64,000 nt of DNA. Source: Gammaproteobacteria bacterium (lineage in GTDB: Bacteria > Pseudomonadota > Gammaproteobacteria > GCA-001735895). The translations under genes were made by a program, and so were the position numbers. How positions within the stretch are numbered: the first letter of the stretch is position 1; every line of letters starts with the position of its first letter. The notes beneath the pieces were generated by a model that was not told the origin of the DNA, made no database searches, and was given only the letters and a program-made list of their open reading frames with translations. This document shows positions 4,648 through 43,919 of the stretch, piece by piece. The stretch covers positions 70,158-134,157 of the forward strand of contig JAOTYD010000003.1 of assembly GCA_029862005.1 (NCBI GenBank), in the 5' to 3' direction.

Positions 4648-5106
4648 CTATTCCTCGCCAAGCCGTGATTTGAGCCAATGGTCGATCGAGAAAAATCCAC
4701 CACCGTAGAGAACACTGGTCAGCAGCATTGAGCCCCAGAGGTAATGCCACACGAGGCCGGCCCCCTTGGCCAGGGTTGCATAGTAAGAAACCACCGCGAT
4801 GATATTAATGAACGAGACAGCAATCGCGGTAAAGCGAGTGCCCAATCCTATGATTAAAAATACCGGGAACACGAGTTCACCGATGGTCGCGAGGTAAGCT
4901 GCTAGTTCAAAGTTTAGCAGTGGTACCTGGTATTCGTACTCGAACAGTACCAGTGTGGTTTCCCAGTCTCCAATCTTGTGCATGCCGGACTTCAGGAATA
5001 CCCAGGCGACGTAAAGCCTGATAAATAACAGGAATGGCGACTGCAGCTTCGACAGTAAATCGTGAATCGACAAAATCGGCGCACTTAACTTTTCAATGAA
5101 CCCCAT
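4648..5106 (-). CDS. DoxX family membrane protein (BufD-like)
   Basis: LFIRLYVAWVFLKSGMHK...ELVFPVFLIIGLGTRFTA...YGGGFFSIDHWL, four TM helices. Confidence 0.9.
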   Translation of the reverse strand: MGFIEKLSAPILSIHDLLSKLQSPFLLFIRLYVAWVFLKSGMHKIGDWETTLVLFEYEYQVPLLNFELAAYLATIGELVFPVFLIIGLGTRFTAIAVSFINIIAVVSYYATLAKGAGLVWHYLWGSMLLTSVLYGGGFFSIDHWLKSRLGEE

Positions 5107-41170: not shown

Positions 41171-41287
41171 TTGAGTGGTCCTTTATACGGGGACGTAAGA
41201 AATAAACCATGTTGTTCATGTTTTGATGATGCTGACAAGCTTACCCTTTTAGAGCGCTCATATTAACACTAAAAATAGCGCTTCACG

Positions 41288-42073
41288 CTAGTCATTGCTG
41301 AGGCTTAAAACCAGCTGGTCTCCTATCCATTGCTTCAGAAATCCCGCGGCCACCAGCCCTACCTGCGAAGCATCGATCCATTCAAGTAAACCTTCACAGA
41401 TTGTCGCAAAATTCGCCCCGTTTGCAGCTTGATCGAGGGCCCAGGCTTCGTGAACCTCGAGCGAACGCCACTGGATTTTCAGGTCCCGTCGCCACAGCAT
41501 CCAGCGTTGCGCAATCTCGGCGCGCTGTTTTGGCGGTACCTCGGTATCGGTATCCAGCGCGTTCTCGATCAGCGGCACATTCCAGTGCAGATCGAGCCAG
41601 GTGAGTGCCGTTATGAATTTAAACGTAAATTCTGGCCATGCTTCGGCGGGAACCGCCGCCACGTCTTCCAGCTGAACTGGTTGCGGGCAATCAGCGGCGT
41701 CGAAGATCATCGTTTGCGCCCACTCGTAACGCGCCAGCTCCTGCAAAAACCCGGCGTCCTCACCGTCATAAATATTGTCGAGATAAGTGGGCAGGTAACG
41801 GCCGAACCAGCGTACCGAGGGATCGCTGGAAGGGAAGTGGCGCAGGTAGTCTAGCGCCAGGTTTTCAAATGCCTCCCGGCCGATGGTTTTCTGCAGCGCG
41901 GAATAATCGACGGCGAGACAGTCGATGAGACGAATGCGATAGGCATTGTAGTAAGTGCCGAGCCGATGTTCGGCAAGCGCATTTTCGGTGCTGGTTATGT
42001 CCTGCTCGATATCATCCGATCCGTCAATCAGGTAGTGCTGGAAGCGCAGCTGCAAATCACGCAAGTGAGACAT
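41288..42073 (-). CDS. DUF2063-type MNIO partner protein (BufC/HvfC-like)
   Basis: LQLRFQHYL, RLGTYYNAY, FGRYLPTYL, LARYEW; 2 nt downstream of DUF692 gene; start MSHLRD at 42073. Confidence 0.88.
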   Translation of the reverse strand: MSHLRDLQLRFQHYLIDGSDDIEQDITSTENALAEHRLGTYYNAYRIRLIDCLAVDYSALQKTIGREAFENLALDYLRHFPSSDPSVRWFGRYLPTYLDNIYDGEDAGFLQELARYEWAQTMIFDAADCPQPVQLEDVAAVPAEAWPEFTFKFITALTWLDLHWNVPLIENALDTDTEVPPKQRAEIAQRWMLWRRDLKIQWRSLEVHEAWALDQAANGANFATICEGLLEWIDASQVGLVAAGFLKQWIGDQLVLSLSND

Positions 42074-42075
42074 GG

Positions 42076-42915
42076 TCAGACCCGGTAGTAGGGTTCGGCG
42101 ATTCGGCGAGCGTGCTCCAGCTCTGCCAGCACGGTATCGAGCTCGGGGATATTGCCATCGCGTTCGATCATCGTGGAAACCGGGCCGAAACGTTTCGCGG
42201 TCTCTTCGTAAAGTGCCCATACGGGCTCTATGACATCCTGGTCATGGGTATCGATAATCAGGTTGCCATCATTGGTATGGCCCGCCAGGTGGTGCTGCCA
42301 GACTCGTTCGACGGGCACGCCGTCAAGGTATTCGACGGGATCGTAATGGTGGTTATAGCTACTCACGTAGATATTATTGACGTCGAGCAGCAGGTAGCAA
42401 TCGGCCCGGTCGGCAATCTCGCTAAGAAATTCCCATTCAGGCATCGCGTCTTCGCAGTAGGTAATATAACTCGAAAGATTTTCGATCAGCATTTGCTGGC
42501 CGAGGAAGTCCTGCACCCGTGAAATCCGGTCTGCGACGTGATTAATGGCTTCCTCGGTGTAGGGCAGGGGCAATAGATCGTGCATGTTTTTATGATCGAC
42601 ACCAGTCCAGCAAAGATGATCTGAGAACCAGCGGGGCTCGATGCGTTCAATCAGGGCCTTTAGTTTTTTCAGGTATTCAAAATCAAGCTCGTCGGTAGTG
42701 CCCAGTGACATCGACACGCCGTGCATCACCATCGGGTAATCCTGGCGGATTGCATCGAGAAAATAGAGCGGCTTGCCGCCTTCGATCATGTAGTTTTCGC
42801 TTAAGACTTCAAACCAGTCGATGTTTGCTGGTTTGCGGTCGAGAATATCCTGGTAATGCTCGGCCCGCAGTCCCAGGCCGAAGCCAAGAAATGGTTTAGA
42901 CGAGGGCTCTGTCAT
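42076..42915 (-). CDS. DUF692 multinuclear non-heme iron oxidase (MNIO, BufB-like)
   Basis: GLGLRAEH, ENYM, HGVSMS, SDHLCW, HDLLPLP, ENLSSY, LLDVNNIY, HLAGH, IDTH, ERD. Confidence 0.96.
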   Translation of the reverse strand: MTEPSSKPFLGFGLGLRAEHYQDILDRKPANIDWFEVLSENYMIEGGKPLYFLDAIRQDYPMVMHGVSMSLGTTDELDFEYLKKLKALIERIEPRWFSDHLCWTGVDHKNMHDLLPLPYTEEAINHVADRISRVQDFLGQQMLIENLSSYITYCEDAMPEWEFLSEIADRADCYLLLDVNNIYVSSYNHHYDPVEYLDGVPVERVWQHHLAGHTNDGNLIIDTHDQDVIEPVWALYEETAKRFGPVSTMIERDGNIPELDTVLAELEHARRIAEPYYRV

Positions 42916-42961
42916 AGCTGCAGGTCCAGACTTTTAACGATATTTATTGTATCCGGCAGGC

Positions 42962-42994
42962 AAAAAAAATGCACCGACAGGGCCGGTGCATTTT
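42962..42994 (-). terminator. Intrinsic terminator between precursor and MNIO genes
   Basis: Hairpin AAAATGCACCG..CGGTGCATTTT with an A8 run (U8 on the minus strand). Confidence 0.75.
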
Positions 42995-43014
42995 CACTAG
43001 CTGAGAAAGACAGC

Positions 43015-43266
43015 TTAGGCTTCGAAGTTGCCGCCAGCTGATTCACATTCTGACTTGGTACGCTTAACCCAACCCTGTCCCGCGCAAGAGTTTTGACCCG
43101 CGCAGCTGGTGGTAGCGGTTGCGCAGGCGCTGGTGCCTTTGCATGAGTTGACGTTAAAGCATTTACCAGCCTTTTCGGTTGCAGAAGCGCTCATGGGTGC
43201 AACGGCAAACATAGCGGCTGCCGCGGCGGCAAGTGCGATCCCAGTGGTTTTCTTAGCTGTAATCAT
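43015..43266 (-). CDS. Bufferin-type (BufA2-like) six-Cys RiPP precursor with Sec signal peptide
   Basis: MITAKK..ALAAAAAAMFAVAPMSASA then CFNVNSCKGTSACATATTSCAGQNSCAGQGW..ECESAGG; GAGG RBS; upstream of DUF692. Confidence 0.88.
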   Translation of the reverse strand: MITAKKTTGIALAAAAAAMFAVAPMSASATEKAGKCFNVNSCKGTSACATATTSCAGQNSCAGQGWVKRTKSECESAGGNFEA

Positions 43267-43325
43267 TATATAGATCCTCACGTTTGATAAAGTTGGTTGT
43301 ACTGGTTTTTCCCCATTACGCGAGC

Positions 43326-43353
43326 TTAGAGAAGCCCTATTTCGAGAAAGTTC
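43326..43353 (-). promoter_or_regulatory. Putative sigmaE/AlgU-type ECF promoter of the precursor operon
   Basis: Minus strand reads GAACTT-N17-TCTAA about 60 nt upstream of the precursor ATG. Confidence 0.55.
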
Positions 43354-43406: not shown

Positions 43407-43919
43407 TTATCGATATTGCCGGATGATCAGCTGGTCGCCCCTTTGAACCAGTTCGAAGTGTTTTAAAACGTTCATACCAAGCAGGATTTCACCAACCTCC
43501 ATACCCGGGATAATGCTGGCATTGACGTCGAAAAGTTCGATTTGTCCGATCGAGAGCTGTTCCAGGCGCGTCAGGTAGGCGGTGGTGATGCCATTTGCCG
43601 TCGATACCGAGGTCGCGGGGCCCTGTTTCAAGCCGAGCGCCTGCTGCAGGCGACCAGGTATCGCCGTGATGGTGGCGCCGGTATCAACCAGGAAAGTTAC
43701 CTTTTGACGGTTGATTTCGCCATCAAACCTGTAGTGGCCACCGCGGTTACGTGTCAGCACTACTTCCTGGAAATCGGACGTTTGTAAGGTTGAAACTGAT
43801 TGATTGGGGTTACTTTGCTGGTCAAGTATTTTTGAAAAGACTAAAGCCAGTAGCAAAAAACCGAGGATCCACGCCGCGGCAGTGAACATCATGCCGAGTT
43901 TTTTAGTAGAATGGGACAT
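43407..43919 (-). CDS. Membrane-anchored retropepsin-like aspartic protease (TIGR02281-like)
   Basis: N-terminal TM, GHY, FLVDTGAT, LLGMNVL. Confidence 0.92.
   Translation of the reverse strand: MSHSTKKLGMMFTAAAWILGFLLLALVFSKILDQQSNPNQSVSTLQTSDFQEVVLTRNRGGHYRFDGEINRQKVTFLVDTGATITAIPGRLQQALGLKQGPATSVSTANGITTAYLTRLEQLSIGQIELFDVNASIIPGMEVGEILLGMNVLKHFELVQRGDQLIIRQYR

Follow-up and report, generated by a model that had tools for sequence, protein, structure and literature searches.

We analyzed a window of 64,000 nt of DNA and, from open reading frames and profile matches, found an intact three-gene operon, bufA-bufB-bufC, on the minus strand. Its genes and associated elements are:

41266–41290, minus strand: terminator-like hairpin and T-run closing the operon, located by a terminator scan and overlapping the bufC stop codon
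41288–42073, minus strand: bufC, 261 aa; PME type 1 partner protein containing DUF2063 and, as modeled, a C-terminal RRE-like domain; PF09836, AF2 and Foldseek
42076–42915, minus strand: bufB, 279 aa, the MNIO/DUF692 maturase; NF050167 and PF05114 matches
42962–42994, minus strand: intrinsic-terminator-like hairpin and U8 in the gap between bufA and bufB; 14-bp stem and 3-nt loop as folded
43015–43266, minus strand: bufA, 83 aa, with a Sec signal and six Cys
43015–43179, minus strand: bufA core peptide and stop codon; 54 aa, TEKAGKC...NFEA, six Cys, NF050166 match
43180–43266, minus strand: bufA signal peptide, residues 1–29, MITAKKTTGIALAAAAAAMFAVAPMSASA, read by eye from the sequence
43299–43319, minus strand: GTAATGG-N-CCAGTAC, an inverted repeat within the predicted 5′ leader; putative operator or small hairpin
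43326–43353, minus strand: putative ECF sigma-E-type bufA promoter, GAACTT (43348–43353), 17 nt, TCTAA (43326–43330)

We placed the start of bufA at the ATG at 43266 (MITAKK...) and not at the GTG at 43281, because the ATG is preceded at 8 nt by a conserved GAGGA and gives a length in line with the 82–84 aa of the homologues. The true start of bufC is the ATG at 42073 (MSHLRD..., 261 aa), two bases past the bufB stop codon; the boundaries drawn in an earlier note on this DNA, made from the sequence alone, implied an over-long reading frame of 310 aa. No DoxX gene was found within the operon, and gcvP lies downstream of bufC past the terminator; the genome does have three DoxX genes, all of them outside the buf operon. 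We rejected a recent horizontal acquisition because the GC content is unremarkable and the order aroC/protease–bufABC–gcvP–sdaA is kept in seven species-level relatives. The host genus comprises marine-sediment gammaproteobacteria.

The cysteines of BufA are residues 36, 42, 48, 55, 61 and 74, with the exact spacing C-x5-C-x5-C-x6-C-x5-C-x12-C. The earlier note had described a Sec-exported precursor with this spacing and with NSCKG and NSCAG motifs, and all of these are present in the sequence; the signal, assessed by eye, has a KK n-region, an Ala-rich h-region and an ASA/T cleavage site, features conserved across the homologues. BufA matches the BufA2 equivalog NF050166 with 78.8 bits (cut-off 60) over profile positions 2–78 of 79, and at 77.9 bits in a whole-genome search; it had no match to PF10048 of Pfam. 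The residues following Cys II–V are K, A, A and A, making Cys II the only one of the four with a Lys behind it. Caulobacter Buf2 carries four thiooxazoles on Cys II–V and a Cys I–VI disulfide (−18 Da) (PMC11626156), and by analogy we predict a disulfide between Cys I and Cys VI of BufA and thiooxazole sites at Cys II–V. An AF2 model built from 50 homologues was of low confidence (pLDDT 60); in it, Cys I belongs to a strand and Cys VI to a short helix. Neither sequence nor profile searches found a bufferin structure in the PDB.

BufB scored 385 bits against NF050167 (MNIO_BufB; cut-off 310) and matched PF05114 with E = 5e-113, its nearest solved structures being 3BWW, TglH and MbnB. It aligns over its full length with FonB, HvfB and NgoB and retains every invariant His, Asp, Glu and Asn position (H65, H100, E145, D178, N180/N181, H209, H213, D222, H224, E251 and D253, the last aligning with the catalytic-base Asp), which bears out the earlier reading of a DUF692 protein with intact metal-ligand motifs. 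The DUF2063 partner was likewise correctly recognized: PF09836 covers residues 7–98 of BufC at 62 bits (cut-off 27). BufC is not an HvfC orthologue, as it reached only 37 bits against that equivalog (cut-off 142). The top Foldseek matches of its AF2 model (pLDDT 94.5) were 3DEE (Neisseria PME1; TM 0.74, E = 2e-6) and TglI (8HI7_A; E = 3e-5), and the C-terminal part gave weaker matches (E 0.4–5) to the lasso-peptide RRE proteins 6JX3_B and 5V1V; on the modeled structure, BufC carries a C-terminal RRE-like winged-helix domain. A plain sequence search of solved structures with BufC found nothing, and a profile search reached 3DEE only weakly. With the BufA2 and BufB models above their cut-offs and DUF2063 in BufC, there is full support for identifying the locus as a bufferin-type MNIO RiPP cluster.

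Relatives of the locus are abundant: metagenomes contain >200 protein clusters of them, and species-representative genomes >500 loci. We sampled the best 80 loci from the scan of the latter, which contained 79 precursors; the order bufA-bufB-bufC is found in about 55 of the 80, across many phyla. The 5-5-6-5-12 spacing of the cysteines is shared by 118 of 120 database homologues (the two exceptions being of sequencing type) and by the 79 peptides from the sampled loci, and peptides nearly identical to BufA (82–95% identity) are plentiful in marine metagenomes. The closest alphaproteobacterial members among the best 80 loci are only 46–51% identical to it, and BufA is almost certainly not a near-identical copy of a characterized bufferin. 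The Caulobacter locus was not among these 80, and the NF050166 search left the Caulobacter control genome unflagged, owing either to a filter missing short peptides or to the distance of the model from the prototype.

Against this background, the claim of a divergent six-Cys precursor and a new variant was overstated: BufA matches the BufA2 model end to end, its spacing is normal, and Ala commonly follows Cys III and IV among the 79 sampled precursors. The part that stands concerns Cys V and the enzyme. Lys is nearly invariant after both Cys II and Cys V in the sampled family, and after Cys V it is missing only in the clade of the window (7 loci) and in one spirochaete; the replacement of CKG by CAG had been correctly noted and is the only unusual point of the peptide. 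All six Cys and the neighboring Gly and Asn are invariant within the clade. The real difference from the family is narrow, consisting of the lost Lys after Cys V, an Asp-to-Gly change in the MNIO and family-model scores below those of the unlinked paralogs (NF050166, 74–78 bits for operon-linked peptides and 79–87 bits for unlinked ones across the genus). Apart from the Lys loss and the matching change in the MNIO pocket, the locus is an ordinary member of the buf2 family.

The change in the enzyme lies in the motif IERDGNIP (ERDG), with Gly254 at the substrate-selectivity site. The corresponding residue in FonB is F250; Cys-Lys MNIOs have an Asp there, modeled in contact with the substrate Lys (PMC13097082). 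Among 58 sampled enzyme–precursor pairs from linked loci, the site reads ERDD in 42, ERDA in 8 and ERDG in 8, and the mean number of Lys after Cys II–V is 3.1 for Asp, 2.6 for Ala and 1.1 for Gly enzymes; the Gly clade is a single lineage, and the correlation therefore represents one evolutionary event and not statistics. Ala-site enzymes are also paired with fully Lys-rich peptides (loci L032 and L048), and Asp at the site is therefore not obligatory. In turn, 12 precursors of Asp enzymes have Ala after Cys III/IV, which those enzymes would tolerate if the cysteines concerned are modified at all.

Upstream of bufA, 8 species share the elements TGAACTT and CTCTAA without variation, while the flanks diverge. 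GAACTTT-N16-CTCTA also precedes the only rpoE homologue of the genome, and a search of the 4-Mb genome for the exact bufA motif gave a single occurrence; a sigma-70 consensus scan upstream of bufA found no site. Similarity of motifs thus points to a putative sigma-E-type (ECF) promoter for bufA. Six pairs of the leader repeat are conserved in 8 species, one of them with a compensatory change, and its fold is weak (−4.4 kcal/mol); Rfam gave no credible match, the leader repeat included. The bufA–bufB intergenic RNA folds at −33.5 kcal/mol (z = −3.6). This internal hairpin, missed by the terminator scan and found by folding, has counterparts at the equivalent position in 18 loci with unrelated sequences, in many of them followed by a U-tract.

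The genome has a single MNIO and a single bufC against three BufA2 genes, two of which are Lys-rich and unlinked to bufABC, and the pattern of a single maturase with several BufA2 genes holds genus-wide. The upstream motifs of the unlinked paralogs differ from that of bufA, and their coexpression with BufBC is therefore not assured. One of them lies in a merR-merC-GDCCVxC string, beside a two-component system and a CopI-like cupredoxin. The HvfX-like DoxX gene 36 kb from bufABC (4648–5106) has a sigma-E-like promoter, and across the genus the presence of this DoxX and the MNIO (both/MNIO only/DoxX only/neither, 12/1/2/4) is associated with a Fisher p of 0.017, uncorrected for phylogeny. As one 97%-complete genome retains the DoxX and has no buf genes, a role of the gene as a strict BufD in trans is weakly supported, and we set it aside.

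Taken together, the evidence makes it very probable that the locus is a buf2-type bufferin (captophorin) operon working broadly as follows. Transcription of bufA would start from the sigma-E-type promoter, and the terminator past bufA, if leaky, would yield far more mRNA for the peptide than for the enzymes. BufA would be synthesized as an 83-aa prepeptide, and in the cytoplasm BufC, through its RRE-like domain, would present it to BufB, an iron enzyme that by four-electron oxidation would convert the central cysteines (up to four, Cys II–V) into 5-thiooxazoles, the product installed by all characterized MNIO–PME1 pairs (PMC13097082). The peptide would then be exported by Sec, lose its signal peptide after ASA29 and form the disulfide between Cys I and Cys VI. 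The resulting 54-residue product would reside in the periplasm, where its thiooxazole thiolates would sequester copper and possibly further soft metals. The Lys normally present after Cys III–V has been lost from the cis-encoded peptide of the genus, and the Gly in place of the Asp proposed to hold that Lys probably relaxes the sequence selectivity of BufB, so that a single BufBC pair could also act on the two Lys-rich BufA2 paralogs encoded elsewhere.

We tentatively extend this to a bufferin network across the genus, a reading that we regard as possible though not favored. The Asp-to-Gly change would let one relaxed-specificity BufBC pair process the Lys-poor cis peptide and the two unlinked Lys-rich ones under separate inputs: sigma-E-type promoters for bufABC, the HvfX-like DoxX gene and one orphan precursor, and an OmpR-type direct-repeat box for the other orphan, placed in the mer-like metal island. 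If true, it would provide a natural test of the proposed Lys–Asp specificity rule and an example of RiPP precursors regulated apart from their enzymes.

The loss of Lys could alternatively mean that the product is undermodified, with only Cys II, the sole C-K-G, or Cys II and one other converted to thiooxazole. The remaining cysteines would then stay as thiols or disulfides, and the metal site would differ in stoichiometry or geometry from that of Caulobacter Buf2, making the peptide a real chemical variant. The residues flanking Cys govern turnover by FonBC (PMC13097082), and here the near-invariant Lys after Cys V and the Asp proposed to contact Lys have both been replaced. However, the invariance of the six Cys and their adjacent Gly/Asn within the clade speaks for continued use of all the sites. 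A residue as small as Gly is likelier to relax selectivity than to abolish it; the F250A and F250D variants of FonB remained active (PMC13097082). Ala after Cys III/IV is, moreover, common in family members that retain the Asp, and we consider undermodification unlikely.

We regard as slightly less probable again that the peptide matures as proposed and serves mainly in a general response to envelope stress or in handling another soft metal (such as Hg, Ag or Cd) instead of copper buffering. The sigma-E-like promoters of bufA and the HvfX-like DoxX gene and the paralog in the mer-like string fit such a role, as do the lack of copper induction of the Microbulbifer mmr cluster (PMC12538549) and the links noted between bufferins and MerC (PMC12452194). 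Nevertheless, all characterized captophorins bind copper (PMC13097082). The cluster in the window has no metal-specific neighbor of its own, and copper stress can itself be an envelope stress. The idea that a membrane-anchored clan-AA aspartic protease encoded upstream (43407–43919; TIGR02281, 94 bits) is a fourth component trimming the exported peptide seems very improbable. Its gene directly adjoins bufA on the same strand, an adjacency found in 9 related loci, two of them with BufB only 75% identical, but the arrangement is limited to the lineage, travels with aroC and is separated from bufA by the conserved promoter. The protease is present in none of roughly 45 more distant bufABC loci, and no further conserved genes are described for bufferin clusters (PMC12452194).

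For the operon itself, we retain the buf2-type reading with predicted modification of the central cysteines. Bufferins/captophorins are a very large and widespread known RiPP class, and one more intact operon adds little. The lineage is of interest as a modest natural experiment on MNIO substrate selectivity because it combines Gly at the residue proposed to read the Lys (PMC13097082), loss of Lys from the cis peptide and Lys-rich precursors without a second enzyme; the maturation of stand-alone bufferin genes in trans has been raised as a question (PMC12452194). The predicted sigma-E control, if right, would mean that the link between ECF factors and bufferins, known from SigF of Caulobacter, also exists in gammaproteobacteria.

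Among known systems, the bufferin 1 (BufA1, DUF2282) clusters share the biosynthetic logic and probably the copper-buffering role in the periplasm with the locus, but have four Cys, the DUF2282 signature and usually DoxX and sigF-nrsF. The four-gene bufABCD cluster includes DoxX in the operon, unlike the locus described here. Fontiphorin, oxazolin, gonophorin and bulbicupramide, the Lys-Cys/EGKCG captophorins (PMC13097082, PMC12538549), have the same enzyme pair and presumably the same 5-thiooxazole chemistry; they differ in having EGKCG-repeat precursors in place of a folded six-Cys domain, ERDF in their MNIOs and, in many cases, DoxX (HvfX/NgoX). The Cys-Lys captophorins (PMC13097082) share with it the ERD catalytic motif, the MNIO–PME1 pairing and an exported precursor rich in Cys, but multiple Cys-Lys motifs are the defining feature of that group and its MNIOs carry Asp where FonB has Phe250, whereas the precursor of the locus has a single Cys-Lys and its BufB has Gly. 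The locus most resembles bufferin 2 of Caulobacter vibrioides (BufA2-BufB2-BufC2, CCNA_03001-02999; BUF_6/12Cys; PMC11626156, PMC12452194), a copper-induced operon that protects against copper without DoxX (PMC11626156). The two share the Sec-signal six-Cys precursor, the MNIO, the DUF2063/RRE partner, the gene order, the lack of DoxX in the operon and, in all likelihood, control by an ECF-type sigma factor (SigF in Caulobacter). They differ in that BufA has one Cys-Lys against several and has lost the Lys after Cys V, that Gly254 of the MNIO stands in place of Asp251 of BufB2, and that the promoter resembles those of RpoE/sigma-E rather than SigF, with no adjacent sigma/anti-sigma pair. In the genome of the window, furthermore, one maturase pair would serve three precursor genes.

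This locus is a genuine bufferin-2 operon, intact, and belongs to a known, very large family. Its boundaries were set as follows:

41266–43353, minus strand, bufABC, a compact unit of three genes as read from the sequence
43266 (ATG) to 43015 (stop), minus strand, bufA, precursor peptide of 83 aa, with a Sec-type signal at residues 1–29 (MITAKKTTGIALAAAAAAMFAVAPMSASA) and a core of 54 residues (TEKAGKCFNVNSCKGTSACATATTSCAGQNSCAGQGWVKRTKSECESAGGNFEA)
42076–42915, minus strand, bufB, MNIO maturase of 279 aa, separated from bufA by a 99-nt spacer
42073 (ATG) to 41288, minus strand, bufC, partner protein of 261 aa, starting two bases past the bufB stop
overlapping the bufC stop, a terminator-like hairpin, then gcvP as the next gene

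An ORF-finder start for bufA at GTG 43281 was rejected, as it falls within a conserved GAGGA ribosome-binding site and the homologues begin at the ATG. The 310-aa ORF that the earlier note implied for bufC was over-extended, the ATG at 42073 giving 261 aa. Between bufA and bufB we found a strong hairpin followed by U8 (spacer –33.5 kcal/mol, z = –3.6); in 18 loci of unrelated sequence, hairpins occurred at the equivalent place, many of them followed by a U-tract. This supports a leaky terminator that would set the ratio of peptide to enzyme. The gene immediately ahead of bufA, likewise on the minus strand, encodes a membrane-anchored clan-AA aspartic protease (43407–43919; TIGR02281, 94 bits). 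This adjacency was kept in nine related loci and missing from distant bufABC loci, and is probably synteny only.

The identification of a bufferin-type MNIO RiPP cluster, made earlier from the sequence alone, was right. BufA shows exactly the Cys spacing described, C-x5-C-x5-C-x6-C-x5-C-x12-C, along with the NSCKG/NSCAG motifs. The intact metal-ligand motifs of the DUF692 enzyme were borne out by family-model matches and by invariant residues kept in alignment, and the DUF2063 domain was found in BufC. BufB scored 385 bits against NCBIfam NF050167, "MNIO family bufferin maturase" (cut-off 310), and matched Pfam PF05114 with E = 5e-113. Aligned with FonB, HvfB, and NgoB, the MNIOs of characterised captophorins (sequences from the supplement of PMC13097082), it retained all invariant His/Asp/Glu/Asn residues (H65, H100, E145, D178, N180/181, H209, H213, D222, H224, and E251) and D253, the counterpart of FonB-Asp249, the proposed catalytic base. 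Because the numbering in the supplement text is off by 2–3 residues, correspondences were set by motif (LDVNNIYV, IDTH, ERD) and not by number; matched in this way, BufB N180, D222, and H224 are the counterparts of HvfB N175, D242, and H244, site-3 residues shown to be essential (bioRxiv 10.64898/2026.07.17.739211). For the AlphaFold model of BufC (pLDDT 94.5), the top structural matches were Neisseria PME1 3DEE and TglI, the partner of the MNIO TglH, while the C-terminal part matched lasso-peptide RRE proteins.

The precursor had also been called divergent, and for the most part this did not hold. Over the full length, BufA matched the curated equivalog NF050166, "BufA2 family periplasmic bufferin-type metallophore", with 78.8 bits (cut-off 60). 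A search of a large protein collection returned at least 200 clusters; among the matches listed, many were 82–95% identical, their sources being marine metagenomes and MAGs of Gammaproteobacteria, and the Cys spacing was identical in essentially all. Scanning species-representative genomes gave more than 500 loci with relatives. Among the best 80, the order bufA-bufB-bufC was found in ∼55, spanning Gamma-, Alpha-, and Betaproteobacteria, Spirochaetota, Binatia, and others, and ∼20 contained stand-alone precursor genes. Two or three tandem BufA2-type genes preceded a single bufBC at L016, L035, L051, L083, L024, L044, and L068, with hosts from Cocleimonas/Thiotrichaceae and several Alphaproteobacteria.

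What stood of the divergence was a clade-specific loss of Cys-adjacent Lys, with a matching Asp-to-Gly change in the enzyme. We tabulated the residue following each Cys (Cys I–VI, residues 36, 42, 48, 55, 61, and 74 of BufA) for 79 family peptides from the best 80 genome loci. Among these, Cys II was always followed by Lys, Cys III and Cys IV by Lys and Ala about equally, and Cys V by Lys, barring the window's seven closest relatives (L005–L011) and one spirochaete. The window clade is therefore K,A,A,A after Cys II–V, with one Cys-Lys motif. The BufA core contains six basic residues in total, and VKRTK ahead of Cys VI offsets the Lys lost beside Cys. A "Cys-Lys" precursor group has been defined whose MNIOs have Asp at the FonB-Phe250 position, and an AlphaFold model sets Asp251 of BufB2, the MNIO of Caulobacter vibrioides bufferin 2, against the substrate Lys (PMC13097082). 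In 58 sampled enzyme–precursor pairs from linked loci, the motif at this site was ERDD in 42, ERDA in 8, and ERDG in 8, the last restricted to the window clade and one further locus (L023). The mean Lys count after Cys II–V was 3.1 for Asp, 2.6 for Ala, and 1.1 for Gly enzymes, which fits the published Lys–Asp contact model. The Gly enzymes are one lineage and thus one evolutionary event, and Ala enzymes were found with K,K,K,K peptides too.

The genome itself (97% complete) holds one MNIO, one bufC, and three BufA2-family genes, two of them outside the window:

contig C43, 5264–5515, plus strand, extra BufA2 paralog with K,K,K,K
contig C94, 293914–294165, minus strand, extra BufA2 paralog with K,K,K,K

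Each is ∼62% identical to the window peptide, and no maturase was found near either. Within the genus, operon-linked peptides scored 74–78 bits against the family model and unlinked paralogs 79–87, and the cis-encoded peptide is therefore the more derived one. Across 19 genomes of the genus, the MNIO count never exceeded one per genome, and two or three precursors were present in six. The C94 paralog sits in the string merR, merC, a GDCCVxC protein, the bufA2-like gene, an OmpR-family regulator, and a histidine kinase; a CopI-like cupredoxin is encoded close by. PMC12452194 expressly considers stand-alone precursors that may be matured by a different locus; the paralogs are therefore a good illustration of an arrangement already known, not a new one. 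In the 200 nt upstream of orphan precursors (L102–L108 and the two paralogs), we found two regulatory types, one with a sigma-E-like ATGAACTA-N17-TCAGA element and one with a direct repeat, GTGATAcTTTtGTGAat, whose spacing resembles that of boxes for OmpR-family regulators.

Ahead of bufA, eight species shared TGAACTT and CTCTAA without change, amid drifting sequence. GAACTT-N17-TCTAA occurs once in the genome, and GAACTTT-N16-CTCTA precedes its single rpoE homologue, whose product shares ∼59% identity with E. coli RpoE. The latter motif resembles the classical sigma-E consensus, and a sigma-E type promoter for bufA appears reasonably probable. Just downstream of the –10 element, the predicted leader contains an inverted repeat, GTAATGG...CCAGTAC (43299–43319, minus strand), which was kept in eight species with one compensatory change and might serve as an operator or fold into a small RNA hairpin.

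A similar element occurs elsewhere in the window:

4648–5106, minus strand, DoxX gene, closest to HvfX among the three in the genome
5149–5175, minus strand, promoter-like element of the DoxX gene, TGAACTTT-N15/16-TC(A/C)AA

The element was invariant in 13 genus members and resembles that before bufA. Against the HvfX model, the gene scored 59.7 bits and the other two 39 and 37, all below the cut-off of 80. Within the genus, this DoxX gene and the MNIO tended to be found together: 12 genomes had both, 1 MNIO only, 2 DoxX only, and 4 neither (uncorrected p = 0.017). A nearly complete genome of one relative kept DoxX without any buf genes. The gene may encode a BufD-like partner 36 kb from bufABC.

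Caulobacter bufferin 2 (Buf2) carries a change of –18 Da, with –4.03 Da on each of the four central Cys together with a Cys I–VI disulfide (PMC11626156), and all characterised MNIO–PME1 pairs make 5-thiooxazoles (PMC13097082). By analogy with Buf2, BufBC would oxidise the central Cys of BufA to 5-thiooxazoles ahead of Sec export, which also fits the chemistry of the characterised pairs, and the periplasmic product would then bind copper. With three of the sites in a Cys-Ala context and a Gly in the pocket, up to four may be modified, and their number is the one real chemical question. In a low-confidence AF2 model of the precursor, the first strand contains Cys I and a short helix contains Cys VI, which agrees with the published fold description and carries no weight here. 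The NF050166 search gave no match in the control genome of C. vibrioides, from which the family has its name, whereas a match was obtained there for the MNIO; either so short a gene escapes the first-pass filter or the prototype lies far from the model. Cys I and Cys VI of Buf2 are numbered Cys24 and Cys50, 26 residues apart (PMC11626156), whereas the family spacing sets them 38 apart and would fit Cys12 and Cys50; the mismatch may be a numbering slip or a differing spacing in the prototype.

Buf2 is the second-largest bufferin family, buf2 lacks DoxX, and tandem and stand-alone bufferin precursor genes are common (PMC11626156, PMC12452194). The window system, which the earlier note took for a new variant metallophore, is not new in kind and is a handy natural test of the published specificity hypothesis; in the spread of its relatives and in gene arrangement, it agrees with bufferin 2 as published.
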